Origin: an uncultured Verrucomicrobiae bacterium
Lineage (GTDB): Bacteria; Verrucomicrobiota; Verrucomicrobiia; Chthoniobacterales; JAFAMB01
Length of the DNA: 64,000 nucleotides
Direction: 5' to 3'
Assembly (NCBI GenBank): GCA_963762565.1
Contig: CAVXLD010000012.1
Span: 513,697-577,696, forward strand
This document shows, piece by piece, positions 12,054 to 51,926 of the stretch (position 1 is its first letter; every line of letters begins with the position of its first letter). The translations under genes and the position numbers were made by a program. The notes below the pieces were generated by a model. It was not told where the DNA came from, did not search any database, and saw only the letters and a program-made list of their open reading frames with translations.

Positions 12054-12537
12054 GGGGGTGTAAAACTAGTTAGGGACACTAACGTCTTCCAATACTTATT
12101 TCGAAGTGTTACTAGACCTTCTGCGTATGGAAAAGAAGGTAAATGTTCAGGGCAGGCCTCTCACTTCCCACCTTTTATTGCTGCCAACGGTTAGTCGACA
12201 AAAGCGAAGAACGGCACCGGCCCGCGGCTTCAAATGCTCGGCAGAACTGTCCAAAGTAAAAAGACATGAGCCTATTTCTTCCCGTCTTAAAACCTCAACT
12301 TACAAACGGAAAGATCTCAAAGGTCACAAAGCCAAAAGACTTCTTACAGAAGCTAACGAAGCAAACGAAGGGTTGTGAAACGCTAAGCTAAACCCGGGCC
12401 GAAAACCCCTTCGTTACCTTCTGTATCACCTCTGTTGCCTCCCTTACCTCCTGTTCAAACCGTCTGTCTTTGTGGCCTTTGTGATCTTTCCGTACTGTAG
12501 GAATCGAATTGGGCAACACGCCTTTAAAGGCGTGACC

Positions 12538-12702
12538 CTATGTGTTAATCAGGAATTTCTGGAGAGGATCCCAATAGTGCGCTTTCCAGCCCGATGCGAA
12601 ACTCTCCGCGTCGCCTTTAGGGAAGCCGGTATGATCAAATACGATTTTGGTTTCGCCGCCTTGTTCCACGAGTTCGAACTTCACAATCGAGTAGACGCCG
12701 AA
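12538..12702 (-). pseudogene. C-terminal fragment of an SRPBCC/AHSA1-domain gene
   Basis: GVYSIVKFELVEQGGETKIVFDHTGFPKGDAESFASGWKAHYWDPLQKFL; the N-terminus is missing and replaced by the DAC gene region. Confidence 0.65.
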
Positions 12703-12762
12703 TAGACAAATCCCCTGAAAGCAAGAAGAATGCAGGATGCACAAGAAGTATAACGGAGAAAG

Positions 12763-14544
12763 ATGAGTTGCCAGCCGATCACCTACCTCATGTGGAAGTA
12801 TCAACCGCATTTCAGAGCTGCAGCGAAACACTTTGCCGAAAGGGTTTTCAAGGATCTAGATCAACTTTTCGAGCCGCAGCTATTTCTGGTTGGTATTCTC
12901 GCTGATAGAAATCTGCAGCGTTTTCCCGCCTGTGTGGAGCCGGAAAAAGACTTTTGGATTCACTCGGAACGTTTCAATGGTGTGCTGGCACTAGCCCAGA
13001 CTCTGAACCCGGCATATCCCGAAACCGGAATGCCTCAATCCCATCCTCTGGCTCAAGAGCGGCAAAATAAAACCTTATTCGATCGATCAATCCGTGATGC
13101 TATCAGGGAGACGATTGAGACGGAGTCATCAGCCAGCTTCAGTTTACGCTACTTCGTCTCACTTCCGACCAGGGTAGAAGGTTACCTGGTTTGTACGGTT
13201 CTCGGTTTGCAGCGCGAGGTAGTTCGTGCGCACTATGAACTGAAGCAATCTGTGGTCCGGATTCATAAACATAGAAATGCTGAGGTGGCGGTGTCGTTAA
13301 TTGACGCTGCCGCAAAAGAGTTTCTCGAGCGTTTGCGCCAGGAGCTTCTGAAACCTGATCCTGGCCTCGGCGAACTCGAGGTCGATCCGGAAGATATTAT
13401 CTGTCTCGCTGGCCGGTCGCTCTGCAGAGATACGGTCGCGCGAATCGATCAACGCCGAATTGAAGGCATGCATGACCTCTTTAACGCATGCTCGACGATT
13501 TCATCTCTTGGATACGAGAAATCGGTGGCATCGGGGCGTATGATCCTTTGCCGAAGGGATCACTTGTCGCTAAACCCCCGGATCTCACTGATAAAGCCGG
13601 AAAAGCTATCTAGATACCGGGCAGCAAGAAAACTTTTCCAGCTCGCATCCGGCGATCTCTCCCTGCATTCGGATTCCGAGGAGGTTTTTGGTTTAGTATC
13701 GCTTCGGGACTACGACGAAACCCAAGAGGACCTCTTTGAGATGCAGGTACTTGGTCATCAGCATTGGGAACTAAATCACGCTGGCAAAACGCTCATGAAA
13801 GTGGGGTACGGTATACCGTCTTTGCCGCGGTTGTCCTTTCATGAAGCCAAGCTACGGAGTGATTTAGCAAGAATCTTCAGATCAATAAGTCCAGAAGATA
13901 CTAGTCGCCTGGTGACATTGATCCGGGCGGCTGAGGAAGTCTCGCACGGCGCCCTTTTGATCATCAGTGAGAATGCTGCCGCTGAGGCGCATCGCCTGCG
14001 AAAAGAGGGGATGCCGGTCGATGCGTGCTTACTCACGCCCGACCTGTTGCGACGTCTCACCACTATCGACGGAGCCATTCTGCTGTCGCCTGATGGCATG
14101 TGTCACGGTTTCGGGACAATTCTGGATGGAATGGCTAGTGAGAGCGGCGATCCTAGCCGCGGGGCTCGCTTTAATTCTGCGCTCCGTTATGTAGAAGCAG
14201 CCTGGCCCTGCTTGGCGGTCGTGGTGTCACAGGATAGCGGAATTGACTTCATTCCAAACCTCCGGCCGGCTGTTCGACGGTCGGCTATAGATAAGGCAAT
14301 CGCCGAAATCAAAGAATTGAAAGGTGCAACCCTGATAAGGAGGGACCGATATGATGCCGCTCTGGACTTTCTGGATGAACACCGCTTTTACCTTCGGAAA
14401 GAAGATTGCGATACCATCATTTCAGTAGTCGAATTTGTCGAGGCAGCTCTCCGGAAGCAGGACAGAACAGGAATCTGGATCATCAGGCAGAAATTCGTAC
14501 CAAACCTTCACCTGGATGAAGAGTTATATTACCAGAAAGAATAA
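12763..14544 (+). CDS. DisA_N/DAC (diadenylate cyclase-like) protein with large N-terminal domains
   Basis: HGALLII...IDGAILL...ILDG...RGARFNSA...VVSQD match the DAC fold motifs. Confidence 0.75.
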   Translation: MSCQPITYLMWKYQPHFRAAAKHFAERVFKDLDQLFEPQLFLVGILADRNLQRFPACVEPEKDFWIHSERFNGVLALAQTLNPAYPETGMPQSHPLAQERQNKTLFDRSIRDAIRETIETESSASFSLRYFVSLPTRVEGYLVCTVLGLQREVVRAHYELKQSVVRIHKHRNAEVAVSLIDAAAKEFLERLRQELLKPDPGLGELEVDPEDIICLAGRSLCRDTVARIDQRRIEGMHDLFNACSTISSLGYEKSVASGRMILCRRDHLSLNPRISLIKPEKLSRYRAARKLFQLASGDLSLHSDSEEVFGLVSLRDYDETQEDLFEMQVLGHQHWELNHAGKTLMKVGYGIPSLPRLSFHEAKLRSDLARIFRSISPEDTSRLVTLIRAAEEVSHGALLIISENAAAEAHRLRKEGMPVDACLLTPDLLRRLTTIDGAILLSPDGMCHGFGTILDGMASESGDPSRGARFNSALRYVEAAWPCLAVVVSQDSGIDFIPNLRPAVRRSAIDKAIAEIKELKGATLIRRDRYDAALDFLDEHRFYLRKEDCDTIISVVEFVEAALRKQDRTGIWIIRQKFVPNLHLDEELYYQKE

Positions 14545-14919
14545 CGTGTCTTTAGCCCCTTCGCCGATTCATCGTTGTGGAGCGCGCCTCGCTTGCGAGG
14601 CCGACATTGAGCGGGTGGCGACATAGAGATTGGGCTACGGCGGACAGGCTGTCCTCGAATCCGGCCACGCGGAGTGATGGAGTGTGGGAGTGTTGGAGTA
14701 GTGCGCCAAGTCCGAAAAGCATCCGCCTTGGCGGATTGGAGAAGCTAAAGGGGGAGATGGGGCGACGTCTGCTTTGGGTGAGATTTTTCTTCGCGTTTCT
14801 TCGTGTCACTCGCGATCCCTATCGGCTATCGGAATGCGCCATCTGTCATTTGTGATCTGTCATGCGCTTCGCTCCCTTCAGAGTTGCTATAAGCCGGTCG
14901 CGAAAGCTACGATCGCCGG

Positions 14920-15231
14920 ATGAAATCCAAGAAATCTAGGTTTCTTCTCTGCGGGGTTTTGGCAGCTTTACTGCCGGTTTCTGCGGGCCAGGCAGCGCAG
15001 GATTCGGCGTCGGCGTGGCATCCGACGACTTTTTTTGAGGCAGTCATAGCCTCCATCGTTTTCGGCGCAGTCGGGATCGTGCTGGCTGTCGGAGGTTTCA
15101 AACTGTTTGATCTGGTGACGCCGTTCAATCTCGAAAGAGAGATGTGCCAAAACAAGAATATCGCTGTGGGAATCCTATGCGGAGCGATCGTCATCGGCGT
15201 TTGCCACATCATAGCAGCATCGATGAGCTAA
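14920..15231 (+). CDS. DUF350 membrane protein
   Basis: FDLVTPFNLEREM...KNIAVGIL. Confidence 0.8.
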   Translation: MKSKKSRFLLCGVLAALLPVSAGQAAQDSASAWHPTTFFEAVIASIVFGAVGIVLAVGGFKLFDLVTPFNLEREMCQNKNIAVGILCGAIVIGVCHIIAASMS

Positions 15232-15259
15232 GAGCCCGGACTCTAAGTTTTTCACTCTG

Positions 15260-15514
15260 GTGAAGAAATCCCGAAGCGTCGTTCTGTTGATCACCGGATC
15301 GGTCGTGCTCGCCTCTTGCCAACAAAAGCCGGGTGCTTCTGAAGATATGCTCGCGACTCCGACTCCTACGGCAACGCCGGCGTCCTCATCCTCCAGCTGG
15401 CATTATTTCTGGAGGAGTTGGCACATCCATTCTTTCTTCGGAAGTAGTTCCTTTTTCAGCGGTATTCTGCGCGGCGGTTTCGGGTCGCATGGTAAAGCCA
15501 GCATAGCCACCTAG
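15260..15514 (+). CDS. Small lipoprotein, YgiB/DUF1190-like by position
   Basis: KKSR + hydrophobic segment + LASC; C-terminal RGGFG; abuts the Gsp synthase gene. Confidence 0.65.
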   Translation: MKKSRSVVLLITGSVVLASCQQKPGASEDMLATPTPTATPASSSSSWHYFWRSWHIHSFFGSSSFFSGILRGGFGSHGKASIAT

Positions 15515-15515
15515 C

Positions 15516-16628
15516 ATGGAACGCATGACCACCGATCCTCGCCCCGGCTGGCAGGCCAAAGTGGAAAAACTTGGTTTAAGTTTCCATTCTGCAGATGAAA
15601 CTTACTGGGACGAATCGGCCTACTATCTATTTACTGCTGCCGAGATTGATACGCTGGAAGCAGCGACTAACGAACTCCACCGAATCTGCCTTGAGGCGGT
15701 TCAGCATGTCATCGATGCAAACCTTTTTTCACGTTTTCAAATTCCGGACCGGTTTGTACGCCTGATCAAGAATTCGTGGGAACGAGAGGATCTATCGCTT
15801 TATGGACGGTTCGATCTTGCTTTCGAGGGAAAAACGGCGCCGAAAATGTACGAATACAATGCGGATACACCAACCTCGTTACTCGAGGCGAGTGTTATCC
15901 AGTGGCATTGGCTGGAGGAAAGGTTCCCCGAACGTGACCAATTCAATTCGATCCACGAGAAGCTCGTTGCGCGCTGGCGAGAAGGCGGATTGGACAGTTG
16001 TGTCCACTTCGCCTGTATCCGCGATCACAGCGAGGATTTTGCCACGACGGTGTATATGCAAGACACCGCCATCCAAGCTGGGTTAGAAACAAAACGCTTG
16101 TTCATAGATGAGATCGGCTGGAACGGACGGCATTTCCTCGATTTGGAGAATGCCAGGATAACAACCTTGTTCAAACTGTATCCATGGGAATGGTTCATCG
16201 ACGAGCGGTTTAGTCCTTACCTTCTCCGGGAACCATGGCAAATCATCGAGCCAGCCTGGAAAATGGTATTGAGCAACAAAAACATCCTGCCCCTGCTATG
16301 GGAGATGTTCCCTAATCACCCAAACCTACTACCGGCCTACGCCACACCTGACCGACTTGGCGGCAGCCACGTCAAGAAGCCGGTATTCGGCCGGGAAGGC
16401 GCCAACATCACGATCACAACCGACGGAACCGAGATTGGCACGGGCGGCGACTACGCTCAAGGCGCCTATATTTACCAGGCGCTCATGCCACCGCCGAAGT
16501 TCGATGCCGTTTGTGCCGTCATCGGCTCCTGGATTGTGCGCGATGAGGCAGCGGGAATCGGCATCCGGGAAAGTAATGTTCCCATCACGGAGAATACCAG
16601 CCGCTTTATACCTCACCTTTTTTGTTAG
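15516..16628 (+). CDS. Glutathionylspermidine synthase family ATP-grasp protein (YgiC-like)
   Basis: YGRFD, EYNADTPT, KLYPWEW, EPAWK..LSNK, KKPVFGREG and SRFIPH. Confidence 0.92.
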   Translation: MERMTTDPRPGWQAKVEKLGLSFHSADETYWDESAYYLFTAAEIDTLEAATNELHRICLEAVQHVIDANLFSRFQIPDRFVRLIKNSWEREDLSLYGRFDLAFEGKTAPKMYEYNADTPTSLLEASVIQWHWLEERFPERDQFNSIHEKLVARWREGGLDSCVHFACIRDHSEDFATTVYMQDTAIQAGLETKRLFIDEIGWNGRHFLDLENARITTLFKLYPWEWFIDERFSPYLLREPWQIIEPAWKMVLSNKNILPLLWEMFPNHPNLLPAYATPDRLGGSHVKKPVFGREGANITITTDGTEIGTGGDYAQGAYIYQALMPPPKFDAVCAVIGSWIVRDEAAGIGIRESNVPITENTSRFIPHLFC

Positions 16629-16715
16629 TTTCGGGCGAAGGAATCTTCCGCTGTAGCTCCTATTCGTTATTTGCTATTTGCTATCCGCGGAGCGCTGCCT
16701 CTCACCGGTCACTTT

Positions 16716-17345
16716 TCACCGGTCACTTTTCACGATCCGCCACGATGGTTCCGTACTAAAATGGCAAATGATCAGTGCTTTCATATAGGCTTCCATATCA
16801 GCTTGTTTGCTGGTGGTAGGGAAAATTGTTTGCTGGAAATTCGTTAAGGCCGGTCGGTCCCGCCAGAATGAGGCGGCTAAAAAGCGGTCCGGGCTATGAT
16901 CTAGCCGGCATATCAAAGCACCTAACATTCCGTCGGCACCTTCTAAAGCGGGGTTCCAGATCTGCATTTGTCTCGCCACGAAAATCGGGGAACTATCCGG
17001 CTCCAAAGTTGCATCAGTGATTCGGACGCACCCGGCCGATTCAACCAGAAACCGTGGATCCGATTCGCCAATTCGCATGATCACAGTGGCAACGCTGGTC
17101 TCAATTCGCGCATAAGTCTCGGTCTGTGGCATAGCCAGATCGTCATGACCAGTCTCCAAGAACCGGCGATAGGTTCCCGGATCGCGCCAGATGGCTAAGA
17201 TACCAGCCTTTGCCGGAAATGAGTCAAGCCATCCACCCACTTGACCCATGAACCCGTCGTAGCGTATTAGCTCCGCCCATCGTCTTTGCGCTTGATCGAA
17301 GGCCGCCCGATCCGAAGCCTCTGCTACGATCCATTTCACGAGCAT
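16716..17345 (-). CDS. DUF4937/YdbC-like protein
   Basis: MLVKWI...AFDQAQRRWAEL..YDGFMGQVGGW...HD; duplicated ABM-like halves. Confidence 0.65.
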   Translation of the reverse strand: MLVKWIVAEASDRAAFDQAQRRWAELIRYDGFMGQVGGWLDSFPAKAGILAIWRDPGTYRRFLETGHDDLAMPQTETYARIETSVATVIMRIGESDPRFLVESAGCVRITDATLEPDSSPIFVARQMQIWNPALEGADGMLGALICRLDHSPDRFLAASFWRDRPALTNFQQTIFPTTSKQADMEAYMKALIICHFSTEPSWRIVKSDR

Positions 17346-17362: not shown

Positions 17363-18143
17363 CTAGATTTGCGTCCAGTCTAGCGTCTCCTTTGACGCAC
17401 GGCGTAGCGCTGTCTGTTGATCTTGATCCCCTCGAAGTAGCTTCCGCATCTGGGCCACAAACTCAGTGCTACCCAATAAGACCGTGTACTTCAGACGGTC
17501 TTTCCAGTCCGTTTCCCAGTCCCCGGTTGCCGCCGCATCGCGGAGTTGGCGGCGAAAGGTCTCTTGACGCTTTCGCTGTGAGCCTTGGCCGAAGCACTCC
17601 AGAATTGCCTGAGTACTTAGCCAATCAACCGGAGTTCTGGTTCCGGCAAAGTATCCGTAAGAACTCCATGGAAATTGCTCCAAGATCTCAACCCGCTGAC
17701 GAGCCAGCTCTTTGGCGATCTCAACCTCCGAGCTTGCCCAACCTTCGTGACCGCCAGCGGCCTTAACCCGATCCGGATTGAGATGGATATAGCGGTTGAT
17801 AATAACCGCTTCGTCCGGTTCATGCAGAATCGCTTTAAAACGCCCCTGAAATAACGGACCAACCCGGCTGTACTTGCGGTTTAACCAAACGCTATAGCCA
17901 ACGTTGAGCCAATGCATAGCCCGCCCTGAGGTTGGCTTCTGGCGTCTCGAGCTGCAGATGATAATGATTCGGCGTCAGCACGTAGCCATGAAGCTTGACC
18001 CCGAACCGTCCCGGCAACGCGCTGAGTAGCTCCAAAAACCTTTCGTAACAACGCTGAGAACGGAAGATAGACCGTTTCTCGATGCCGCGGTTGAGCACGT
18101 GATACCAGGCGCCTGGGAAATCAATCCGGGTCGGTCGAGCCAT
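17363..18143 (-). pseudogene. REP-associated tyrosine transposase (RAYT/Y1_Tnp), frameshifted at about 17925 and C-terminally truncated
   Basis: MARPTRIDFPGAWYHVLNRG...NHYHL in one frame, then GPLFQGRFKA...RYIHLNP...WSSY in another; paralog of 50748-51776. Confidence 0.88.
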
Positions 18144-18355
18144 CCGGATTTTGTGCCAACCGCGGGTCAAAAACTCAAGACGATTCTGTGTAATGTATAG
18201 ACGCGACCCCTTTAAACCCCGCTTGGAGGAGGCAAAGCAGAAGGATTGTTTTGGGATCTACATCGCTCATGACCGGCTTAGGTGGCGCCCCGGTCTCCCT
18301 GTGAAACATAAGCTCGCCCGCGCACTTCGCGAATAGCAAATACTCCTTCTTTGCG

Positions 18356-19554
18356 TCAGATCAGCGCTTGATAAACCAGATTAATAAAGCGCTCGAAGAG
18401 TGCGTGCTCGTCGTATGGGAGATGTTGGGTAAAGACGAGCATGACGAGTTCTTCTGCCGGATCCACGAGGCATAGGGTGGTCAATTTGCCGGCCCAGCCG
18501 AAGGAACCGAGTGTTCCCAGGGTACCCACCAGACCATTGTTTATACGAACGGCAACCCCGAGTCCTAAACCGTATCCCTGGGCAAAAGTCCGATTCGTAA
18601 TGCGTAACCCGCCCAGATGATCGACGGTCATTTGCTCGAAGGCTTTTCGGCTCAAGATGCGAACCCCGTTTAGCTCGCCGCCATTACAAAGCATTTGTCC
18701 GAAACGGCTGTAGTCTTCGATCGTTGAAAACAAGCCGGATCCACCCTCGGCAAATTTTTTTACCCCGTCGCTGACTTCAAACTCAAAACTCTCGACCGGT
18801 TGAAGCTCGCCGTTTTTGCCATGTTCGTAAACCTTGGCCAAACGATCCCTCTTGGCTTGGTCCACCACGAACCCGGTATCGACCATCCCGAGTGGGTCGA
18901 ATATTCGTTCCTTGAGGAAGTGATCAAACCTCGGCCACTCACGACCTCGACCACCCGCGCCAAAATGTCCATCGAAAACCCGTATTCATACATGGTTCCC
19001 GGCTCTCTTTTCAGCGGTAGCGCGGCTAACATCTTCACCAAATCTGCTAGTGACTCGGCTTTCTCCAGGCCGGCGGATCGATAGAGTTCGTCGACCGGTC
19101 CTTCGTCATCGCCGTAACTGTAACCGGAGCTGTGAGTAAAAAGATGATGGACGGTGATCGCGACTTCCGCCGGGATTAGTTCCCGGTGTTGGGCCGTGCC
19201 TCCAACAAAGATCTTCATATCGCTGAACTCGGGAAGGTAGTCTTTGATCGAATGCGATAAGCCCAATTTCCCTTCTTCAATGAGGGTCAGAGCCGCCACA
19301 CCACTAACGATCTTCGTGAGGGAGTAGATCCGCGCGATGGTATCGCTTCTCATCGGTTTTCCCTGTTGCCGGTCTCGAAGTCCGGCGGCAAAGAAATCGG
19401 CTACCTCGCCTTTGCGAAGCAAGAGAGCACAAATACCGGCATGCTTCCCTTCGTCTACGAACGACTCGATCCGGCGATGCAGCCGTTCCAGGCGTTGAAC
19501 AGAAAAGCCAAGTTTCGCGGCGCCAGCGTTAGAAGCCGTTGCAGCAGTAGTCAC
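18356..19554 (-). pseudogene. Beta-lactamase-like serine hydrolase, single frameshift at about 18930 (possibly a sequencing error)
   Basis: YSLTK (SxxK), LFTHSSG and YEYG, then FDHFLKERIFDPLGMVDTGF, GGSGLFST and FGWAG in the next frame. Confidence 0.85.
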
Positions 19555-23518: not shown

Positions 23519-23933
23519 TCTGTTGGGGGAACAGCCGCACCGATTACGCGCCCCGGCTTTTGGCGCGAAGCGTTTGCCCGTCGCTCATGTAAGGAGGCCG
23601 CCCGCTCGGGGTTTAGCCAAGCACGAAGAGGGCGGAAAAGGAAGAAAAATAACCGCAAACGAGCGCAAAGAAAGACGGCGAAAATCTCACGCAAAGACGC
23701 AAAGACGCGAAGGAAAGACAGATTTGACCACAGCCCCCGAACCCCGAAAGCTGTTACCCCGGAAGTTTTCGGGGTTCGGGGGAACACTCTCCGGGGTGAA
23801 ATGGACAAAAATTGTGGAGGCGGTGAGGGGCGTTGCCGGCAAACGCTTGGATCTGAATAGTAGGCTTTGCAGAGCAGAGGCTACCTCGTCTTCCCTTCGC
23901 GTCTTTGCGGCCCTGCGTGAGATTTTCTTCTTC

Positions 23934-25505: not shown

Positions 25506-25948
25506 TTCGCTTTTCCCACCATCAAAAGAACTCAAAAGAGCACAAAAAAATAAATCTCACGCAAAGCCGCAAAGCCGGAAAGGTTAAGAGGGTGGGGGGC
25601 CTGCCCTGAGCATCTCGACAAGCTCGATACAGGCAAGCTTTGAGCGCGTCGAAGGGTTAATAGCGATTCGTGGACCGCTGCCTCGCTCGCGAGGCCGACA
25701 ACGCGAAGCGCCTAATCTGCGTTCATCTGCGGTTGAACTGTCTTTCCTTTGCGTCTTTGCGCCTTTGCGTGAGATTTTCATTCGCGTCCATTCGCGGTCC
25801 CTTTTTGCGTTCTTTGCGCTCTTCCGCCGCTTACCGCGCCGTAGGCCTTGCGGAGGCGGGGCTATTAACTCTTCCACCAATCACCTGTCACCAATCACGA
25901 ATCACTTCCCGCCTATAGCCATCTGTCATCTGTCATGCGCTTCGCCTC

Positions 25949-28618: not shown

Positions 28619-28775
28619 AGTTCCACAGTATCACAGTGACGAAGAAAATCTTGCTCGGCTACATTTGGGGGGCGAATGCTGCTGGAGCGGCTTTGGGAAG
28701 ATAGCGTTAGCGTTACGTCGGATTGGGGGAGATGGGGAGGGAGCGGTCCTCATTCATGCCAGCAAAGGAGCAGCT

Positions 28776-28961
28776 CTAGCGCCTTGCAGGGAAGATCGTC
28801 CGTCGTTCGATTCCCCGATTCAAGACATGATACCAAGCTCCTGGGAAGTCCACGCGAGTTGCACGCGCCATGCCCGTGAGAGTCGCATCCAATAATAGAT
28901 ATACAATAATAATATGTTATTATGATTCAAGAACTTAGTGTTTTGTTATAGACGCGACCCC
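28776..28961 (-). mobile_element. RAYT 5' fragment with its upstream leader and end motif
   Basis: ATG 28871: MARATRVDFPGAWYHVLNRGIERRTIFPARR*; AGACGCGACCCC at 28950-28961; near-identical to 43919-44092. Confidence 0.85.
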
Positions 28962-29336
28962 GGGACCGACGCCCCAGAACACCAACGCATTAGTCCGGGC
29001 AGGGCTTCATCACTGAAGCACGCGCTTCCCTGCCCGGCTTCATCGAAACCCCCTCGATTGAAACCATCTTTGAAGGGCTAGAGTTGCAGCGAATCCGGCT
29101 TCATCACGATCAGCAAATTCCAGAATGGTAGGGTCAGAGAAAATGGGGGTAAGTAAACAAACAAATCTTGACTAAGTCCATCTAGCGTTTGCTATGGGGT
29201 GTTCTTAACAAGGGTGTGCCCCTCCAAAAACCGCGGCTGTGTCGACCGGCGCTGAGCCTCAACCCCCTTTCACATTATATTTCCTCTAATTTCTCGTCTA
29301 CATATCAAGTAAACCTTCCAATCGACCACCAAAACT

Positions 29337-32525: not shown

Positions 32526-32632
32526 AAGGCGAGGACTGAAAGAACACAAAAAGTTGACCGCGATGATCCTCGTAGTAAGCCAGACACTGGTAAACCTGCG
32601 GGCCCGTCAGGTCCGGAATAGGTCCCTGAATG

Positions 32633-32700
32633 GGGACAGGTCGACTGTTGGCCGTCCCAAAGGTTGTCGCTATGCAGCAGCACCACTATTGACCTGTCCC
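32633..32700. repeat. REPIN-like mini-element GGGACAGGTC...GACCTGTCCC
   Basis: Terminal inverted repeats, 68 bp; followed by a tandem re-copy of the right end. Confidence 0.75.
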
Positions 32701-32999
32701 TTTTGAACTTTTTGACCTGTCCCTTTTGAACTTTCCCGCGCAAGGAAAAGGCACTGTGAAACGGCTTCGAATGAATGACCGCATGCAGATTGAAGCACGG
32801 CGGCATTGGCTGGAGCTGGAACTCTATCCGTAGAACGGTAGTAGGAAAGGGCAACGCGCTCAGGGTCGGTCCGAAGGGGCTACGATTTGAGGTCCAGGAC
32901 GGCGGCTTTCGAGCGACCTAGTTGGCACAGAATGGCCGTCCGAGGTTCGGAAATCCGCCCTTCTCTCATGGAATGAATCTAGCTCTCTAGCGAAATTCC

Positions 33000-33221: not shown

Positions 33222-33563
33222 AAACGAAGATTCTTTTTACCGCTGCGGAAATCCCGCATTCGGAATATAGGCTGTCCTTTTTTGAGACGCAGTCCGGGCC
33301 GCCCTCAAAGGCGCCTGAGCGAACGCCGGGGACACCTTCAGTCAGTGCTACTCATTTGCTTTCCGCGATCGTCTGTTCGTCCAACTCCTCCTCTGATTCC
33401 CCGTACGCCGGCGGATAATACAACACCGAGGTGATTTCTTTCCCGTTAGCCTCGACCAGATCCGCAATCCCTTGGGCGAGTTTCTGATGATATGCGCTGA
33501 CGCCAGGCCCTCTGATCACGATCACGCCGGCCGAGCTCGACACCATCTGAGAAAATCGATCTA

Positions 33564-33626
33564 GGGACAGGTCAATAGTCCTGCTTACAGATTGCGAGCC
33601 GCCCAGGTCGATAGTTAACCTGTCCC
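33564..33626. repeat. REPIN-like mini-element (63 bp)
   Basis: GGGACAGGTCAATAGT...TTAACCTGTCCC; related to 34596-34660. Confidence 0.8.
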
Positions 33627-33910
33627 TACCTTCACACCCCCCTCGGGACGAGCAGAAAATTTGGAGCGAGGTCAAGCGGTCGGGGTAAAGGACAGGGCCG
33701 AATGTTGCGTCTCACATTAGCCCAGCTGCCGGAAGATCTCCCACGAAGACTAGCCGCAAAAAGAGAACGCCGAAACTGCAAACAAATAAACACCGACATC
33801 GATTGATATGCATGACGACATATGTATTACAAGTCATAGCGGATTGGTGAGATGGACCGTTGGCCCAGGCCGACAGCCGGTTCCTGCGCACCAATCACCT
33901 TTCACTCTTC

Positions 33911-34546: not shown

Positions 34547-34595
34547 GTAGATACAGTAGCTACAAACGACTACGACATCAAAGGAAATAGATCTG

Positions 34596-34660
34596 GGGAC
34601 AGGTCAATAGTCGTACTTACAGATTGCTAGAGCCGTCTAGGTCAAGAGTTGACCTGTCCC
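34596..34660. repeat. REPIN-like mini-element (65 bp)
   Basis: GGGACAGGTCAATAGT...GTTGACCTGTCCC. Confidence 0.8.
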
Positions 34661-34743
34661 AATGACTGACCCCCCAACCACATCATGGACCCCGATCCGA
34701 GTTCCTTCTACAATGTGGACCTGGTAACGCAGCGCGCAGACGA

Positions 34744-37607: not shown

Positions 37608-37785
37608 GATCTGCAACTTATCGAGCGAGCCCCCCGGCAGCTGCCCATCGAAACGAACGTGCAATTATCCAAGAGCCTTGATAAATAAGATAAAACATCG
37701 CGGAATAATGTTGCTTATTAAGACGTGACCCTAGTTCCGAACGCCCTGGTCATCGAGCTCGACGGAGCCCAGCATTTAGTTGACA

Positions 37786-37974: not shown

Positions 37975-38328
37975 TTGGGGCTAGGGACAGAAAGCAGTTG
38001 GAGGGGCGCGCGCCGGGAATATCGTAAGCTGCTTTTCCAAACTGGAACAGCAGCTTCCAAAGCGGGTGCAGTCATTGATGTGGAGCTTGCCCAGAAAGTT
38101 CTCCAGCAACAGCAAGGCGAGATCCCACTCGCGGAGCTTTTGCGTTGTCGGATACGCTATTTTACCGATGGAGGCATCCTCGGTAGCCGGGCCTTTGTGC
38201 AAGAACAATTCGCCCGCTGCAGAGAAATCCTCTCTCCTGCGCAATCCGATCGTGGCTACCGGCTACGCGTCATTCCCGGCGACCAGATCTGGGTGCTCCG
38301 CAATCTCCGCCTTCAGCCAGTCGGCTAG
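37975..38328 (+). pseudogene. C-terminal fragment of a second RAYT-type transposase
   Basis: LLRCRIRYFTDGGILGSRAFV...LRNL resembles Verrucomicrobia Y1 transposase C-termini; no HUH part. Confidence 0.6.
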
Positions 38329-38503
38329 CCTAGCAGTCTAACCTCTGTGCAGGTCGAGCCACGTCGGCAGCCGCGGCTCCGAATTCTCCTCCCGCCTCGA
38401 AGCTTTCCTTAGGAGCTCTCGCCAACAGTCACGCCGGTTATTCTCTCATACCGTCCTGAACTCGGCGCTATTCAACTATCGACCTGTCCCCAGTCCGGTC
38501 CCC

Positions 38504-38618
38504 CCAAGCTCCTGGGAAGTCCACGCGAGTTGCACGCGCCATGCTGGTGAGTGTCGCATCCAGATACAAAAACACAATAATAGTATGTTATTATGATCCC
38601 AGAGCTAAGTGTTTGTAT
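38504..38618 (-). mobile_element. RAYT 5' stub (MARATRVDFPGAW) plus leader
   Basis: Matches 28833-28948; cut next to the GACCTGTCCCC motif at 38480-38491. Confidence 0.8.
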
Positions 38619-41407: not shown

Positions 41408-41515
41408 AGGTGACAGCAGAAGGGTTATGTCTTTAAACAAATTACACAACGTTGCTTGTTAAGACGTGACCCTGGACCCTAGAGACTTAGAGACCAAGCA
41501 CAGCGGTGCCAAGGA

Positions 41516-43252
41516 TTATTTCGGTTGCCCGATCATGGTGATCGGCGGGTTCAGACTGGCAGAGACGCCGCCCCCCGTCGCGGTGACGGTCACGGTTCCC
41601 TCTGAGAAGGCGTTTCCGGGCGTGGTCAGCGACACGGTGAACTGACCCCCACTCGCCGTCGGCACGGCGACCGTCGCGCCGTTCATCGTCACCGTGACCG
41701 TGCCGCCATTCGCGATGGGGAAGCCCTGACCGCGCACAGCGAAGGTCATGCCGCCAAAGATGGGCGGTTGGACGAGGATTCCGGTTACGGAATCGACCAC
41801 CTCGAGCACGGGCGCCAATGCCCCGGTCACGGTTATAGGCGTGGAGGCCAGAAACTGGCCGGCGAGTGTCGCCCTCAGGGTGTAGGGCCCGGGCGGGGCG
41901 AAGCGCGGAATTCGCGCATCGCAAGTCCAAGGCGCCGAGATCGCCGCGACCGCGGCGCTGCCGATCTCGAACGACGGGCTGACCGCGCCGATCGTGGGAG
42001 GGATGAGCGTCAGCACGACCAGATTGGTGGTGGCGGTAGAGGCGATAAGCGAGGGCCCCCAGCTTGACCAGGTCAGGGTGTCGGCGCAGCGCGCCCGGAA
42101 CGAATAGCTCTCGCCCGGCTGCAGAGGCGGCGTCTGATAGCTGTAGTCGGCGCCAACTTCGGGCGTCGGAACGATGGTGACGACGCCGTCCTGACTGACC
42201 TGCGCCAAATTCGGCGTGCCGGTAGAGGTGTTCGGCCACTCAAGGTTGAGGTGGGTTGTCGTGTCCACAGGGAAACCGGTTCCCCGCACCGAAATCTCCT
42301 CGCCGGGCAAGGCTTGACTGGCGCTCGCCGCCAGGGCCGGCGGATTCTGTAAGACTGTTCCCGGGGGTGGCGCGTTGACGTTCTCAATGGTCGGACCCGG
42401 GTCAAGGGGGTGGGTCAGAGTCAGAGTCAGGGTCGAATTGTTGACGATGGAAAAGGCGCATTGCGAGATGCCGCCGGCGACACACTGTGGCCCGGAATTA
42501 TTCAGGGTTGTGAACAAGGCACTGAACGGCGCCGCCGCCGCGCCCGATAGCGGCACGCTTTGATCAGTCCGTTCCGCCGCCTCCCCCTCGAAGAGATCGA
42601 CGAGGCTCTGGTAATTGTCGCTCTGGGTGAAGAAATTGCCGAGATCGGTAATTAATTCCGAAAGGAACGTGTCGAGTCCCGCTCCCACATTGTCGGTATG
42701 CATTGATGCATTATACAACGCCGCGGTGGCGCTGGGGGACAGTTCGAACGGCCTGACCGGTACCGGCGTCGACACCGACAGCACGGCGTCGAAGTTGATC
42801 TTCCAACCGGCGCCAAACTCGCCCGAATAGAAGTGAAAGTCGCCGCCCGGTAGCCCATAGATCAGCGACAGGGTCGCCGGCTGAGTGGCTGATGTGGCGG
42901 GGATGATGACCGCCGTGACATTGCCGCTTGAGGCCAGGGTGCAGGAGACATTGCTGACAGTGGTTCCGGAAGTCTCGGCCTGGGTCGTGAACATCGCGGC
43001 CGCCTGAATCTGTTCCCCGGCTCGAGCCGACTGCCAGGCGAGGTTGAACAGATCGCCAATCGAACGAGTGAGGTAAGGCTTGAGGGGCGCGAGTTGGGCC
43101 TGTAACGCGCTCGGCAAGATCGGCAGAGCGATGATCAGAGACGCGGAGGTTTGTTGATAGGCGGAATTGGTGAGCGCCGGTTCATTTGTCGGGAAATCGT
43201 ATAGATCGACAACGATGTTCAGCGGTTGGTTGGTTACGTCGGCGGTCGTCAT
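41516..43252 (-). CDS. Hypothetical protein with C-terminal Ig/FN3-like beta domains
   Basis: Long T/P/A-rich ORF; LQPGESYSFRARC..WSSWGP is FN3-like; visibly GC-rich. Confidence 0.65.
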   Translation of the reverse strand: MTTADVTNQPLNIVVDLYDFPTNEPALTNSAYQQTSASLIIALPILPSALQAQLAPLKPYLTRSIGDLFNLAWQSARAGEQIQAAAMFTTQAETSGTTVSNVSCTLASSGNVTAVIIPATSATQPATLSLIYGLPGGDFHFYSGEFGAGWKINFDAVLSVSTPVPVRPFELSPSATAALYNASMHTDNVGAGLDTFLSELITDLGNFFTQSDNYQSLVDLFEGEAAERTDQSVPLSGAAAAPFSALFTTLNNSGPQCVAGGISQCAFSIVNNSTLTLTLTHPLDPGPTIENVNAPPPGTVLQNPPALAASASQALPGEEISVRGTGFPVDTTTHLNLEWPNTSTGTPNLAQVSQDGVVTIVPTPEVGADYSYQTPPLQPGESYSFRARCADTLTWSSWGPSLIASTATTNLVVLTLIPPTIGAVSPSFEIGSAAVAAISAPWTCDARIPRFAPPGPYTLRATLAGQFLASTPITVTGALAPVLEVVDSVTGILVQPPIFGGMTFAVRGQGFPIANGGTVTVTMNGATVAVPTASGGQFTVSLTTPGNAFSEGTVTVTATGGGVSASLNPPITMIGQPK

Positions 43253-43918
43253 TGTGTTGAAGCTTTGTTGTGCACCACGCAAGCGACACCAGGCGATGTC
43301 GCAGGTCTATACGTCTAATGGCTCAGTGTTCCTTTGAGCACTACAAACCGCCGAGTAATTCGTCAAAGACCTGGGTAGATTGGACGACGATTGAATCGCT
43401 GCGCGAAACTGCACCGTACAGCCTGGCTAACCAGTTTCGCTCGAGCGAGATCTCTTTGGCCGGCAAACGGATGACGACACTGGCGCCGCTACCGGCTGTC
43501 TAATTCAGCGAGCTCATGGTCGCACTTGGAATGCGACCAAGCTGGCGACACCGATCGTGCCGCTTCAAGTGTTCGAGGACGCGCCCTCGGCCTAAAATAC
43601 GCTCTCTTCGTTACCCTTTACGCGCTCTTCTACGGCTTCTACCTGTTGCGCACTCGCTGCGAGCCTTTCTGCTACCAATTCCATCTGAAAAAGTTTCTGC
43701 AAGTAAGCTCGCTGGCTGGCAAGGAAATCTGCTTCAAGTTCTTCTAGTGTCGGCATGTTTCGGATCCCCTTGTGGTGTTATTACTATGGAGAGTCATTAT
43801 TGTCATTAGAATTAGTTTCCTCAGTTAGTTCATCAACATCCCTAATTACAGGAAGCGTGTCTATACGCGTTTTGACGTATGTTAGTCAGGGAGGGGGCAA
43901 ACGGGGACGCGTCTACAC

Positions 43919-44083
43919 ATCGTCCGTCGTTCGATTCCCCGATTCAAACCATGATACCAAGCTCCTGGGAAGTCCACGCGAGTTGCACGCGCCATGCCCG
44001 TGAGAGTCGCATCCAGCTAAAAAATACAAGAATAATATGTTATTATAATCCAAGAGCTTAGTGTTTTGTATAGACGCGACCCC
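43919..44083 (-). mobile_element. RAYT 5' fragment bracketed by inverted end motifs
   Basis: MARATRVDFPGAWYHGLNRGIERRT; GGGGACGCGTCT at 43903-43914 and AGACGCGACCCC at 44072-44083. Confidence 0.85.
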
Positions 44084-44097
44084 GGGACCGACCCCAG

Positions 44098-44415
44098 ATG
44101 GAGCGAGGCCTAGCACGCCCGGTCGCGACGCTTCGATTCGAGCCCGCAGAGATCACTAGCCGCTTAGGCTTAAAGTTTGAAGCAGCTCACGACGAGCTCG
44201 ATGATCTGGAAGCGGCCGTTTTTAGTGGTTCGCGTGGACAACAATTCGCGCTGGTCCGTCATCGTAATCAGCCAAATCCAGGTACAGACATCCTGATTAA
44301 CGAGAAGTCAGTCGATTTGAGTGCAGCACTTCGCGATGCATTGAGGGCCTTACGATTTCAGCCGCGAGAGCTTCGCTGGACACATCCCGAAATCAAGCTA
44401 AGCGAGTTAGACTAG
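44098..44415 (+). CDS. N-terminally shortened paralog of 62573-62938 (putative orphan immunity protein)
   Basis: EPAEITSRLGLKFE..HDELDDLEAAVF..QFALVRHRNQPNPGTDIL. Confidence 0.7.
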   Translation: MERGLARPVATLRFEPAEITSRLGLKFEAAHDELDDLEAAVFSGSRGQQFALVRHRNQPNPGTDILINEKSVDLSAALRDALRALRFQPRELRWTHPEIKLSELD

Positions 44416-45837: not shown

Positions 45838-46281
45838 GTTATCCAAAGGAACGTCTCTTAACTTTCGACAGTTGCGACTTTTTCATGCGAGTACCCCCCT
45901 CATCGCGAAACCGCTTTCCACCGTGTACCGGCGGGGGCGGTCTTGCTCCCATCCTAGCTATTTCCTCAACGTCTGCCGGTTGAGACGCGAGCCCTTGTTC
46001 GCAGCCTACCGCACCCACGTTGTCCGCCATAGTTTCGGGAACTCTGAACGAAAGAGGAAGCTTTAGTCATCTTTGCAGAGTGCGACAGCCGTTCTAGGTC
46101 AATAGTTGACCTGTCCTCACTTTCATCCCATTTTGATGCCGATTACAAGCCGGCGCCACAAATTCCATGTTCTCGTGCCTTTTGTGATTTTCTGTGAAAC
46201 CTAAACATGCGCCTGCGTACGCTTGCGGAGCCCAGCTTTTGGGGCAGGTTCATCATCGGCAATACCGGGCAATAGGCAGCC

Positions 46282-46850: not shown

Positions 46851-47302
46851 GGTTCCAATGCTAACCGGGGCGGAGTCGTCCTGCAAAGGCCATTTCGAAC
46901 CAAAGGCAGGTCCCAAGGGACAGGTCGGTTATACGTTCAGGGAGTCCGCCTACGAGGGAGGGGTCGTTTGTTCGAGACGAAGAGCGTCGAGTTGGTCCCG
47001 GGGACGAAGAGTCCACTTGGGATCACGCAGATGTCGCCAGAGGATTGTTTGATACATGATTCAGATGTGTTATTAAATACGGGAATCAATGTGACAGCCA
47101 CGAAATCAAAGGGCAAGTCGGCTAGCCTAGCAGTCTAACCTCTGTGCAGGTCGAGCCACGTCGGCAGCCGCGGCTCCGAATTCTCCTCCCGCTTCGAAGC
47201 TTTCCTTAGGAGCTCTCGCCGACAGCCACGCCGGTTATTCTCTCATACCGTCCTGAACTCGGCGCTATTCAACTATCGACCTGTCCCCAATCCGGTTCTC
47301 TT

Positions 47303-49024: not shown

Positions 49025-49218
49025 TGTTTCAGAGAATATCGACAGTCGCGGCCCGGGTCCAGAAAACGATAGAAGAGTCTGGTGCGAAGCCGTCGCGGCT
49101 AACGAATGCTGGATCCTGACTTTTTAATTGGCCCCTACCTGTTTGCGCGAAACGCATAAGAGACTGAAATAGTTGACCTGTCCCTAAGCGGGAATCCAAA
49201 AGTGAAGAAACGTTTCTG

Positions 49219-49982
49219 TTATTTGATCGTCAGCTCTTTCTTGACCACCCGATGCTGGTTTTGCAGCTGCATTTTAATGGGCGTTCCACCAACACTGGGC
49301 GCCACGGCCCGGGTAATTTGTTCAAACAGCGAAACCTTGTTTTGGTCGTCCCAAATTCCGTCCTGTACGACAAATGACACGATGGCGCCCTGCTTATCCT
49401 TTGACAGGAAGACATCGGCGCCGCGGTCTTGAAATAAGCCGACAGATTTGAGGGCCTCCCCAAGCGCCTTGGCTTCCTTCTCCGTGACATCCTGGGAATA
49501 TAAACGTCATCTTTTGCACCCACAGCGAGCGTCGTGAACCGGCCGGCCGTCGGCAACCCGCCGAAGGATATAAAAGCTACCAGCGTGTAAACCACCCACA
49601 GTGCTGCCCCGACCCCAATCCCGCTCCAAATCGACGCGCGTTGTGTGCCAGCGCTAACCTGCTCTTGGAGAAAAGGGCGGTGGATTTTCACCGCGAAATA
49701 GATGGCCGCAATGAGCGCCACAACGGCCAGGAGGCCGGCGAGTATTGAAGGGAGGAGAAACGGCGCAACCAGGTCCATGGCGGCAATGGCGATTCCGGCG
49801 CTAAGGGTGAGGATCGCCGTCTTTTTTTCGCCAGATCGATAATAGTTTAGCGCCATTAGGATGCACCCCGCGGTCGGCGTTCCGATGATGCTTGCGATGA
49901 TGATCGGGCGGAGATTCCACAACTTGACTGCGGCCATGGACGGCGGGGTTTCGATTGATAGGGGTGGGGGATTTTTGCTCAT
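49219..49982 (-). pseudogene. Membrane protein, frameshift at about 49501
   Basis: N-terminal TM part, then YSQDVTEKEAKALGEALKSVGLF...SFVVQDGIWDD...ELTIK* in the adjacent frame. Confidence 0.65.
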
Positions 49983-50181
49983 TTGGCTTTCTTGAGGCTC
50001 GAGAAATAGACGCGCGACCAAAAGCCACTTGCACCCAATCAAATGCGCAGCGGTTGCCGATGGCCGTCTCTACGACTCGCGTCTAAGAATCGCTCCATCG
50101 CCCTGAACTGGTAGCTGCTCGATCCTAGGCCTTAGGTTACTCCGAGCGGCTTCGCCTGGAGCGCCTCGCTGTCAGCGAGGC

Positions 50182-50414
50182 TTAAACAGGCCCTTGATTC
50201 GAGAAGTCATCTAGAACAGGATCGACACTTTCTGTGGGTGCTGGGTCAAGAGCCCCCAGCGCTTGCTCGAGGAACCCTTCCTGCACCAGATATTTCTTGG
50301 CGTATTGCTTCAAAACGGGATCGATGTTCTCTTCTTCCCAGAACAGGCGCCCGTTCTGGCAATTAATATGAACCATGCCGGCTTTTGGGTGATCACCGAA
50401 AGATGCTTCTGCAT
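50182..50414 (-). pseudogene. Frameshifted inverted copy of the 33000-33221 gene
   Basis: ACCCAAAAGCC versus ACCCATAAAGCC (1-nt deletion); the rest is conserved. Confidence 0.7.
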
Positions 50415-50747
50415 GGAATTTCGCTAGAGAGCTAGATTCATTCCATGAGAGCGGTCCGGAGCACCGGCGCTCTTCTCCCAGCGCTCTATGATTCGCATCC
50501 ACCGGATTAGGCTCTAGGGATCACGCAGCCGCTTCTGGCTCACAAGCGCTTTGGCATTGTAGAGACTGATCTTCTGGACCTCATCAAGGAGCGCTTTGAA
50601 TCGCGCCTGCTCTGTTTTTGTGAGCTCGCCTTGATTATTCTTATCCATGAGCCGGTCGAGCTCCGGCTGCGATTCCGGATCCAGACGCTTCAATTCGAAC
50701 TTGGGCTCTGGAACTGAATCAAGTCTTGGAGACGAACGTCCAGCGCT

Positions 50748-51776
50748 TCACAGAATCGCTCGGACAGCTTTGATTCGTCGTTGCAAATCGCGGTCGATTT
50801 TAAGTCGTTCTTCGAAACGAGTGATAGCCATGCTGACAGCCGAGTAGGCGACGCCGCCGGCGACTGAGCCCAGCTCGGCCAGCCGCATGCCGGCGAAGTT
50901 ACGGGCCAGATACCAGGCGGCAGGCAATGCGTCATTGCCGCGTCCGGCGGCAAGGGTTTCCCAATCCTCTTTCCAGACAGTACTCACCGCCGCGCAGATG
51001 TCCTTCCAGTCCGGACCCAGGCGTTCCGATTGCCGTAACCCGAGCTGTTCATGCCGGTCGCCTTTGAGTCGTTTGACCATTTGCCGGACGAAGGAGTCCG
51101 ATCCGAGCAACAGGGTTGCCGAGACTTTATCCTTCCAATCGATTTCCCAATCGCCGAGCCCGGCCATGTGCTCGAGCTGTCGCCGATATGCAGCGCGTAG
51201 ACTCCGGACACTTTGTTGACCAAAGAACGCGTAGATTGAATCCATAGTCAGCCAGCCCGGATTTTTTTCCTTTCCCACATAAACGTTGTATGAACTCCAA
51301 CGATAATTCAGTGCGGCTACTCGAGCATTAATCATCTCCCGATCCGGTTGGGATTGCTCGGTCGCAACCCGTCCTTCATGTCCTCCTAGAGCGGCGACCC
51401 GCACTGGATTGAGGTGGATGTAGCGGTTGATCGTCAAAGCAGAGCCATCCTGATCATGTAAGAGGGCCTTAAATCGCCCTTGAAACAGCGGACCAACCCT
51501 CCGATGAAGTCGATTGAACCAAGTACTATAGGAGACATTCAGCCATTGAATGGCCTGACTAAGATTAGCCTTAGGGGTCTCGATTTGCAGATGGTAATGG
51601 TTACCCATCAGCACATAGGCATGAATTCGCAGGCCGAACCGAGTCGGGAGAACCCTTAGCAGGTCGAGAAAGTGCAAGTTAGTGCGCTCGTCAGGAAAGA
51701 TTTGTCGCTTTTCCAGGCCGCGGTTGATCACGTGATACCAGCCGCCTTCAATGTCGAGCCTCAGAGGTCTGGCCAT
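50748..51776 (-). CDS. Intact REP-associated tyrosine transposase (HUH/Y1) with C-terminal HTH (DnaA-C-like)
   Basis: WYHVINRG, NHYHL (HUH), GPLFQGRF, RYIHLNP (catalytic Tyr), WSSY; AGACGTGACCCC at 51824-51835 upstream. Confidence 0.92.
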   Translation of the reverse strand: MARPLRLDIEGGWYHVINRGLEKRQIFPDERTNLHFLDLLRVLPTRFGLRIHAYVLMGNHYHLQIETPKANLSQAIQWLNVSYSTWFNRLHRRVGPLFQGRFKALLHDQDGSALTINRYIHLNPVRVAALGGHEGRVATEQSQPDREMINARVAALNYRWSSYNVYVGKEKNPGWLTMDSIYAFFGQQSVRSLRAAYRRQLEHMAGLGDWEIDWKDKVSATLLLGSDSFVRQMVKRLKGDRHEQLGLRQSERLGPDWKDICAAVSTVWKEDWETLAAGRGNDALPAAWYLARNFAGMRLAELGSVAGGVAYSAVSMAITRFEERLKIDRDLQRRIKAVRAIL

Positions 51777-51926
51777 GACCAAGAGAATAATCTCGAGGCT
51801 GATGAGCGCAATGTGAAATATTTAGACGTGACCCCTTCGACTACCCCTTCGGTTTTCTACGAATTCTGGCTGTATAGAATAAAATATGATTTGCTTCTGC
51901 TATATAATAGGATACGATATAACAGA

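Follow-up and report, generated by a model that had tools for sequence, protein, structure and literature searches.

Terminal inverted repeats of decayed TIRtrons as the probable origin of an array-like region in a Chthoniobacterales genome

We report that the region between 18 and 52 kb of a 64,000-nucleotide (nt) stretch of DNA from an uncultured Verrucomicrobiae bacterium (order Chthoniobacterales; contig CAVXLD010000012.1, positions 513,697 to 577,696), hereafter the window, is probably a permissive accessory region in which decayed TIRtrons and miniature elements derived from them have piled up, and not a gene-cassette array. An initial annotation had noted one motif 5' of RAYT-like HUH transposase genes and a sister motif between unrelated genes, and had proposed that RAYT ends here capture, stack and shuffle whole genes in an integron-like layout that lacks an integrase. 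The motifs, their clustering and their adjacency to RAYT-like genes stand in our analysis, while several of the positions, the claim that genes are clipped at the motif and the cassette-type character of the cargo had to be revised. Rather than forming a new recombination site, the motifs mark a published element type, the TIRYT/TIRtron, in which a transposase gene (TIRYT) lies between terminal inverted repeats (TIRs). We identified one intact TIRYT gene in the window, along with four decayed copies of the same family (family 1), one fragment of a second Y1 family and approximately 20 TIRs that are solo, dimeric or resemble miniature inverted-repeat transposable elements (MITE-like), representing at least five lineages.

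Motifs in the window

Expected motif counts were obtained from dinucleotide-preserving shuffles of the window. Over its whole length the first motif, AGACGYGACCC, has seven exact matches (0.05 expected), the sister motif, YGACCTGTCCC, eleven (0.04 expected) and their joint core, GACSYGWCCC, 22 (1.3 expected); allowing one mismatch in the bare 10-mer gives mostly noise (50 matches, 31 expected). Of the 22 core matches, 21 fall between 18.2 and 51.8 kb, a part that makes up 52.6% of the window (binomial p = 1.5e-5), and 22 of the 23 sites accepted there are intergenic, in a stretch with a coding share of 76%. All four copies reported 5' of RAYT-like genes are real, and the unpaired copies do mostly share one orientation and lie between unrelated genes, ten of the eleven unpaired exact copies being on the + strand (two-sided p = 0.012). 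The exact matches to AGACGYGACCC are:

18199, 28950, 37721, 41462, 44072 and 51824, + strand
44509, - strand

Some of the other positions were corrected. The copy given at 12528 is a one-mismatch variant (AGGCGTGACCC) that forms part of a separate 37-nt inverted-repeat pair together with 10116-10152. The sites at 33616 and 46107 each have one mismatch to YGACCTGTCCC and were accepted because their inner flanks agree with the family. Moreover, the sister-motif list, for which we count eleven exact copies, had missed minus-strand partners at 32633, 33564 and 34596, and these three sites are therefore inverted dimers of ~67 nt.

TIR architecture among homologous loci

One genome scan gave 79 loci (referred to as L001 and so on) with homologues of the intact TIRYT protein, the best of which has 81% protein identity, and the pattern GGGTC[AG][CTA][GA]TC was searched within 200 nt 5' of each gene. 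The loci represent Verrucomicrobiota, Kiritimatiellia, Lentisphaerae, Planctomycetota and Desulfobacterota (at least five phyla), and the pattern is present upstream of the gene in 64 of the 79. Among the 68 loci with both flanks, 43 have both ends, the downstream copy being inverted and within ~120 nt after the stop codon, 13 have the upstream end only, one has the downstream end only and 11 have neither. These numbers bear out the reading of the motifs as ends of RAYT-like Y1 HUH transposase units.

Comparing the two ends of 46 two-ended elements gives a 27-nt TIR that consists of an outer block, (G)GGGTCAC(A/G)TCT, and two inner heptads, YNACAWT. Left-right identity is 0.70-1.0 up to position 26 and at random level beyond, and position 11 is T in 92 of 92 ends. 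The outer block is conserved across phyla; the heptads vary by lineage and match at 0.72-1.00 within one element versus 0.35-0.88 between elements. No target-site duplication was detected in the 46 elements (k = 4, 0-1 observed versus 0.04-0.31 in shuffled pairs). The upstream TIR is situated ~60-68 nt before the start codon and is followed in many loci by a TTGAC box; because it abuts this box it may have been kept as part of the promoter. On the downstream side the TIR sequence is the same and no promoter accompanies it. Single TIRs fold no better than shuffles (z = +1.5 for 51800-51880, +1.3 for 37870-37935 and +0.4 for 41430-41500), and in single-stranded DNA folds of the inverted dimers pairing is limited to the two TIR arms.

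The intact TIRYT gene and its relation to published TIRYT genes

The intact gene and its end are:

50748..51776, - strand: intact TIRYT gene, family 1, lineage A, 342 amino acids (aa), Pfam Y1_Tnp E = 1e-11
51808..51835, - strand: upstream TIR, lineage A, GGGGTCACGTCT followed by AAATATT and TCACATT, like the upstream TIR of L001

The encoded protein has an N-terminal Y1 HUH domain and a C-terminal helix-turn-helix (HTH) domain that resembles DnaA domain IV. In an alignment of 29 sequences headed by the window protein the HUH motif (H60-Y61-H62) and Y119 are invariant. The profile of this alignment matches DnaA (PDB 8btg) with E = 6e-5 at positions 256-344 (domain IV), and Bac_DnaA_C matches 13 of the 29 members, the best with E = 1.8e-4 and all under the Pfam cut-off. 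With the NCBIfam model for classical RAYTs (NF047646, REP_Tyr_transpos) the protein reaches 46.4 bits where the cut-off is 80. More than 2000 relatives were found; of those with a name, the closest is from Chthoniobacterales, which makes a verrucomicrobial host probable. Identity is 55-93% among the best 120 matches. No downstream TIR was found after the stop codon, and the 3' flank fails to align to the downstream TIRs of the homologues. The closest full-length relatives on long contigs (L002, L004, L007 and L009) likewise have an upstream TIR only.

RAYT-like genes between TIRs with GGGGWSAS in common are described in the relevant passages of Di Nocera, De Gregorio and Rocco (2013, BMC Genomics 14:522; PMC3733652), where the TIR families are reported as single, dimeric or grouped. 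According to the corresponding passages of Quentin et al. (2018, BMC Genomics 19:475; PMC6006769), most TIRYT genes belong to subclass 2.1 of TnpA-REP and have Bac_DnaA_C-like or HTH C-termini; the C-terminal extension of this subclass is related to Bac_DnaA_C, HTH_23 or HTH_28, and the authors doubt that the HTH reads GGGGWSAS. In the window, lineage A (GGGGTCAC) and lineage E (GGGGACAG) fit GGGGWSAS exactly; the fourth G is absent from some copies of D and F type, and GGGGTCGC (lineages B and C) is off at one position.

Decayed copies and miniature derivatives

The gene remnants in the window, with the repeats that belong to them, are as follows:

17366..18143, - strand: TIRYT pseudogene, lineage B, residues 1-260, HTH lost, frameshift near residue 70
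18183..18210, - strand: upstream TIR, lineage B, GGGGTCGCGTCT ATACATT ACACAGA
28755..28978, - strand: lineage C copy 1, stub of residues 1-39, promoter region, TIR at 28934-28961 and 19-nt outer flank
43885..44097, - strand: lineage C copy 2, internally deleted mini-TIRtron with both TIRs
38501..38614, - strand: lineage C copy 3, stub of residues 1-13 with promoter, own TIR missing
37975..38328, + strand: 3' fragment of the second Y1 family, 117 codons, C-terminal part
38316..38499, + strand: 184-nt repeat ending in an E-type TIR (…CTATCGACCTGTCCCC), with ~10 nt of conserved outer flank

The series of decay, from a pseudogene over three stubs and a deleted copy with both ends to dimers of ~67 nt, supports the TIRtron reading. 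For the lineage B pseudogene tblastn gives two high-scoring segment pairs in different frames (49-62% identity), and Y1_Tnp matches its 92-aa stub. Copy 1 of lineage C is 92% identical to 43919-44098, and its 19-nt outer flank is conserved; in copy 2 the downstream TIR (43904) is fused to codon 26 and the upstream TIR is at 44073; in copy 3 similarity stops at TAT/AGACGCG, and the left side abuts the E-type end.

The same reading is supported by the fragment of the second Y1 family, behind which comes a repeat with the other motif at its end. This family has 247 longer homologues, the best 92% identical and most of them 333 aa with PF01797, and its identity to family 1 in the catalytic core is 24%. 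A further copy of the 184-nt repeat (97%) is present at 47113-47296 and a partial one at 37786-37922. The sequence GGGGACAGGTC is a candidate TIR of the 333-aa family. In the fetched loci no homologue of this family was found, and there were only ~30%-identical matches in plasmids; the tentative assignment of GACCTGTCCC to the second Y1 family therefore derives from the window itself. The F-type copies of GACCTGTCCC comprise three inverted dimers of ~67 nt and solo ends. Dimers, solo ends and other repeat-bounded units are:

32631..32723: F-type inverted TIR dimer (32633, 32691) whose right end is duplicated in tandem (23 nt; 32714)
33562..33628: F-type MITE-like inverted dimer, ~67 nt, 84% identical to 34576-34660, fold z = -3.5
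34594..34662: F-type MITE-like inverted dimer, ~67 nt, fold z = -2.6
37705..37731, - strand: lineage D solo TIR, GGGTCACGTCT TAATAAG CAACATT, comparable to the upstream end of L010
41446..41472, - strand: lineage D solo TIR, GGGTCACGTCT TAACAAG CAACGTT, comparable to the upstream end of L008
44495..44562: miniature element that pairs a C-type downstream TIR and its conserved outer flank (44509) with the variant TIR GACCTGACCC (44550)
46084..46117, - strand: right half of an F-type element, one core mismatch, inner flank like the 34651 copy
46917..46943, + strand: solo TIR, the sole one in opposite orientation, begins 1 nt past a DUF433 antitoxin open reading frame (ORF)
49159..49184, - strand: solo F-type TIR; a 270-aa gene (49230-50042) stops 46 nt away
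10116..12539: 2.4-kb segment in a 37-nt inverted repeat (89% complementary), GGGTCACGCC outermost, internal hairpin

The solo TIR at 41446..41472 is 44 nt from the stop of a 588-aa gene (41516-43282), and the one at 46917 may pair with 47278, 360 nt apart. The interval from 37.7 to 38.6 kb contains a stack of three right-hand ends, all within 800 nt and all with their left parts absent. The 2.4-kb segment contains a DUF1330 gene, a CarboxypepD_reg-like gene and a small ORF, and no transposase gene; its right arm overlaps the stop of an SRPBCC fragment. Since there are only two copies of this type of TIR, the pairing of the 37-nt repeats could be due to chance, a possibility of some weight if not the likelier one.

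Tests of gene capture

The proposal that the ends capture, stack and shuffle genes is not supported by the gene content of the window: no duplicated gene segment breaks at a TIR, and the genes between TIRs lie on both strands. The repeated segments 32963-33178/50237-50451, 44098-44303/62618-62823 and 11658-12143/35300-35790 have no TIR at their breakpoints. Cassette-type cargo is present in part; the spacer from 18.2 to 28.9 kb, on the other hand, is 10.7 kb of about nine housekeeping-like genes, among them genes for a GH31 glycosidase, a major facilitator superfamily (MFS) transporter, an FAD mono-oxygenase and PPK2. Of the four minus-strand genes said to end at the motif, one does so exactly and the others stop 16, 44 and 46 nt from it (previously given as 14, 43 and 34 nt). 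The genes that stop beside a TIR sit on the outer side of that end and are therefore flank, not content. Solo ends carry 25-780 nt of element-internal sequence, and therefore look like truncated elements and not like bare sites. The immunity-like ORF at 44098, thought to be clipped at the motif, is probably whole, judging from its start Met, which aligns with Met16 of the paralogue at 62573.

GC content does not vary more between TIR-bounded segments than in permuted segment orders (p = 0.17), and none of the 79 loci is syntenic with the window, save for one helicase-associated gene in L003. It had been suggested that related genomes be compared for gain or loss of motif-bounded units; the four related pairs (L005/L006, L057/L058, L036/L037 and L029/L049) do show insertions and deletions as well as breaks in synteny, with no TIR at the breakpoints and the nearest solo TIRs 0.5-1.1 kb beyond them. 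In agreement with the reported absence of an integrase, no match to Phage_integrase, IntI-type or other recombinase families was found in the 93 ORFs scanned. No tRNA gene was found as an island landmark, nor did an Rfam scan reveal a known RNA family; to our knowledge Rfam has no attC model.

Tandem units in L048, each with a TIR and two ORFs, were considered as cassettes and rejected, being a duplication with variable 3' ends. These 2.3-kb units (2931-7600) each open with a solo TIR of a lineage other than that of the local TIRYT. They are 98.5% identical over 1159 nt, including ~280 N-terminal codons of a ~445-aa ORF, and diverge in its C-terminus and in the following ORF of ~155 aa, a layout that resembles variable-toxin/immunity loci.

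The closest analogue outside the window is L076, from a metagenome-assembled genome (MAG) of Desulfobacterota, with 19 TIR copies in 19 kb. Dimers are located here between core haem biosynthesis genes (sirohaem synthase, cytochrome c assembly and glutamyl-tRNA reductase), and downstream of the TIRYT gene follow seven co-oriented solo TIRs with one accessory gene at a time between them (MarR-like, Wzz, two DUF4143 ATPases, YafQ toxin and HicB-like). Repeated DNA at this locus amounts to only 74-157 nt, and no gene is duplicated. The solo TIRs at 13108-16740 belong to a unit of ~85-100 nt with a conserved outer flank of 8-10 nt (…ACAATAGA) and an inner hairpin, GTGGGGC…GCCCCAC; this defined unit therefore represents a repeat family and not random truncations.

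Other repeats and neighbouring genes

Besides the TIRs, the intergenic DNA between 2500 and 36100 has many further short repeat families, e.g. CACCAATCAC-type heptamer runs, TTTGCGTCTTTGCGTGAGATTTT and ATCTGCGTAAATCTGCG, with examples at 4557-4860, 10180-10540, 23660-23935, 25545-26095, 35200-35460 and 35880-35930. A perfect GGCTATT tandem array of ~17 units (25949-26081) runs into the start of the PPK2 ORF. A 33-nt inverted repeat (7066-7098 and 7327-7359; 97% complementary) with GGGACAGGAC has its GGG side inward, the reverse of a TIRtron end, and brackets a 63-codon ORF (7105-7296). Two longer repeats are without TIR borders: one of ~490 nt (11658-12143 and 35300-35790; 89% identical) with a minus-strand ORF of 86 codons that weakly matches DUF4032, and one of 160 nt at 10547, 27794 and 35948.

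Several neighbouring genes are defence-like or split. The protein encoded at 12763-14544 (+ strand) has the domains DACNG, DACNH and DAC (DisA-like cyclase) and matches the NCBIfam model 'DS2_3 anti-phage protein' end to end with 502 bits, under the 630-bit cut-off; the start of its gene overlaps an N-terminally truncated SRPBCC/AHSA1 fragment (12538-12831). At 18356-19554 (- strand), adjoining the lineage B TIR, a gene of the beta-lactamase family (serine hydrolase) is present as two overlapping ORFs, probably through a frameshift. At 29337-32525 (+ strand) a Trypco1 small protein is followed by a 956-aa protein with trypsin-like protease, STAND NTPase and TPR parts. PADLOC matches within the array are weak or partial, namely the N-terminus of the trypsin-STAND-TPR protein to the N-terminal regions of Avs1b/LmuA and the methyltransferase-HNH protein to mad2; the clearer matches, a Dcm-type methylase and an MkoA-like helicase, lie outside it. 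These belong to a defence-like block outside the TIR cluster (56342-61996) with a Dcm-type cytosine methylase and Vsr endonuclease, an MkoA-like SF1 helicase and a 738-aa protein with an RNase_H_2 domain, and of this block only the 738-aa gene has a homologue near a TIRYT gene elsewhere (L003).

Discussion

The TIRtron is a unit of ~1.1 kb in which the TIRYT gene lies between two 27-nt TIRs, and we suggest the following mechanism. The HTH domain would bind the heptads, and the HUH/Tyr domain would nick and rejoin the DNA at the conserved outer block or directly beside it, leaving no target duplication, as in IS200/IS605 and TnpA-REP systems. Elements of at least five TIR lineages, from two Y1 families, would have inserted between the genes of a region with toxin-antitoxin pairs and defence-like genes, some of them into one another, and internal and one-sided deletions would then have left one intact gene, five gene remnants, dimers of ~67 nt and some ten solo ends. 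The shared orientation of the solo ends might stem from a strand-specific step of single-strand transposition or of end loss, and the genes between the ends would be resident or island genes, not moved cargo.

Several points weigh against this reading. Ten of the eleven unpaired ends face one way, a polarity that random decay leaves unexplained, and the truncated copies keep the right-hand end whichever the gene strand (- in family 1, + in family 2); L076, with its seven downstream solo ends, is likewise of uniform polarity. A replication-strand bias relative to local GC skew is not significant, neither for the genes (33 vs 23, p = 0.23) nor for the solo ends in the loci (24 vs 13). Several copies share 10-19 nt outside the TIR, which a simple element that extends from TIR to TIR does not predict, and the break in the stub at 38501..38614 coincides exactly with the inner margin of the outer TIR block, which hints at site-specific breakage. 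Moreover, positions 1-10 of the TIR consensus, as opposed to position 11 and the heptads, were partly fixed by the search pattern, and both transposition and DNA binding by TIRYT proteins are predictions from sequence.

The capture of single genes at TIRYT/RAYT ends, which would act as recombination sites in an integron-like array that lacks an integrase, would account for some of this. Nearly every gap between one- or two-gene units from 32.6 to 51.8 kb has a TIR, the unpaired ones are co-oriented save one, four genes on the minus strand have their stop codons 0-46 nt from a TIR, and the intact TIRYT gene is at one end of the array; L076 shows a TIRYT gene and then seven co-oriented solo TIRs among single accessory genes, and in the 2.4-kb segment at 10116-12539 a TIR-like inverted repeat encloses genes other than transposase genes. 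We nevertheless consider it improbable. No duplicated gene segment has breakpoints at TIRs, gene orientation is mixed, and one of the 'cassettes' would be 10.7 kb of housekeeping-like DNA; the genes that end at a TIR are its outer flank, the solo ends look truncated, the TIRs of L076 are also found between core genes, GC breakpoints do not track TIRs and none of the 79 loci is syntenic with the window. In a related form of the idea, the ends would be one-sided recombination sites at which the Y1 HUH enzyme assembles accessory genes into polar, transposase-headed arrays. The polarity of the solo ends, the break in the stub and the transposase-free 2.4-kb segment are compatible with such arrays and are unexplained by random decay; on the evidence as a whole we give this form little credence too. 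If true, it would amount to a single-strand, integrase-free analogue of the integron, independent in the Chthoniobacterales window and in the Desulfobacterota MAG.

An unlikely but slightly better placed alternative is one-ended or abortive replicative copying that begins or finishes at one TIR and breaks off at variable points, in which truncated copies that all keep the same end are inserted strand-specifically between resident genes and genes are not moved. Such events would resemble 5'-truncated retroelements or one-ended IS91/ISCR events, and would fit the graded series of right-end copies (~25 nt in solo ends, 40, 137, 115-220, 525 and 780 nt), the uniform polarity in both the window and L076, and the three right ends stacked at 37.7-38.6 kb, whose left parts were not found. 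That stack can equally be three nested insertions followed by one deletion, however, and the solo units of L076 have a defined length of ~80-100 nt, unlike random truncations; no significant strand bias relative to GC skew was seen, and Y1 enzymes of IS200/IS605 are known for precise peel-and-paste, not for rolling-circle copying. Least probable of all, in our view, is that the TIRs are mainly operator/promoter modules, with TIRYT as a domesticated DNA-binding protein and the neighbouring genes as its regulon. The fixed distance of ~60-68 nt from TIR to start codon, often with a TTGAC box, the 13 upstream-only loci compared to one downstream-only locus, the DnaA-like HTH and the strong conservation of the protein (55-93% among the best 120 matches) speak for it. 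The invariance of HUH and Tyr, however, argues for retained nuclease activity, the same TIR sequence is found downstream without a promoter, and multiple lineages together with decayed copies at one locus look like transposition.

With decayed TIRtrons as the preferred explanation, the window is a well-resolved example of a little-studied class that is widespread in the PVC superphylum (Planctomycetes, Verrucomicrobia and Chlamydiae) and Desulfobacterota. It suggests a two-part recognition model, with the outer block for the HUH nuclease and the lineage-specific heptads for the DnaA-like HTH, and the uniform polarity of the decayed copies is a mechanistic clue on Y1 enzymes with inverted-repeat ends. 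Gene capture, if true, would add a new way of assembling genes; the evidence presented here does not show it, and among the top-ranked titles and abstract openings on HUH/Y1 transposases, gene cassettes and integrons no claim of gene capture by such ends was found.

Comparison with known systems

Integron arrays and CALINs (clusters of attC sites that lack an integrase) have in common with the window short, mostly co-oriented sites between unrelated accessory genes, and some of the window sites are imperfect inverted repeats of ~67 nt. They differ in that the window genes are on both strands with spacers of up to 10.7 kb, and in that the window sites bear remnants of transposase genes and match TIRtron ends.

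Members of IS200/IS605 such as IS608 and ISDra2 share the Y1_Tnp catalytic core and the lack of a target-site duplication. These insertion sequences have subterminal hairpins, no TIRs and a TnpA without an HTH extension, whereas the element type in the window has a 27-nt TIR, hairpin-free ends and a two-domain protein of 342 aa. With the classical RAYT/REPIN systems of E. coli and Pseudomonas, whose TnpA-REP is accompanied by palindromic REPs with a GTAG tag, the window shares a single HUH/Tyr gene between inverted copies of a short repeat that is dispersed intergenically as singlets and inverted doublets. However, the window repeats are not hairpin-forming palindromes, only the dimer arms being able to pair, and the window protein is under the cut-off for REP_Tyr_transpos; no GTAG tag, for which no systematic search was made, was seen at the window repeats.

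The agreement with the TIRtron comprises a RAYT-like Y1 HUH transposase that is longer than classical RAYTs, a gene between GGGGWSAS-bearing TIRs at fixed distances (with both TIRs in 43 of 68 homologue loci; the intact window copy has the upstream TIR only), a C-terminal Bac_DnaA_C-like HTH, and TIRs that are single, dimeric or grouped. The window is different in that it packs at least five TIR lineages and two Y1 families into 34 kb. Finally, relative to the published passages on TIRtrons, the two-heptad module, the absence of a target duplication and the one-sided polarity of the remnants are contributed by the present analysis.

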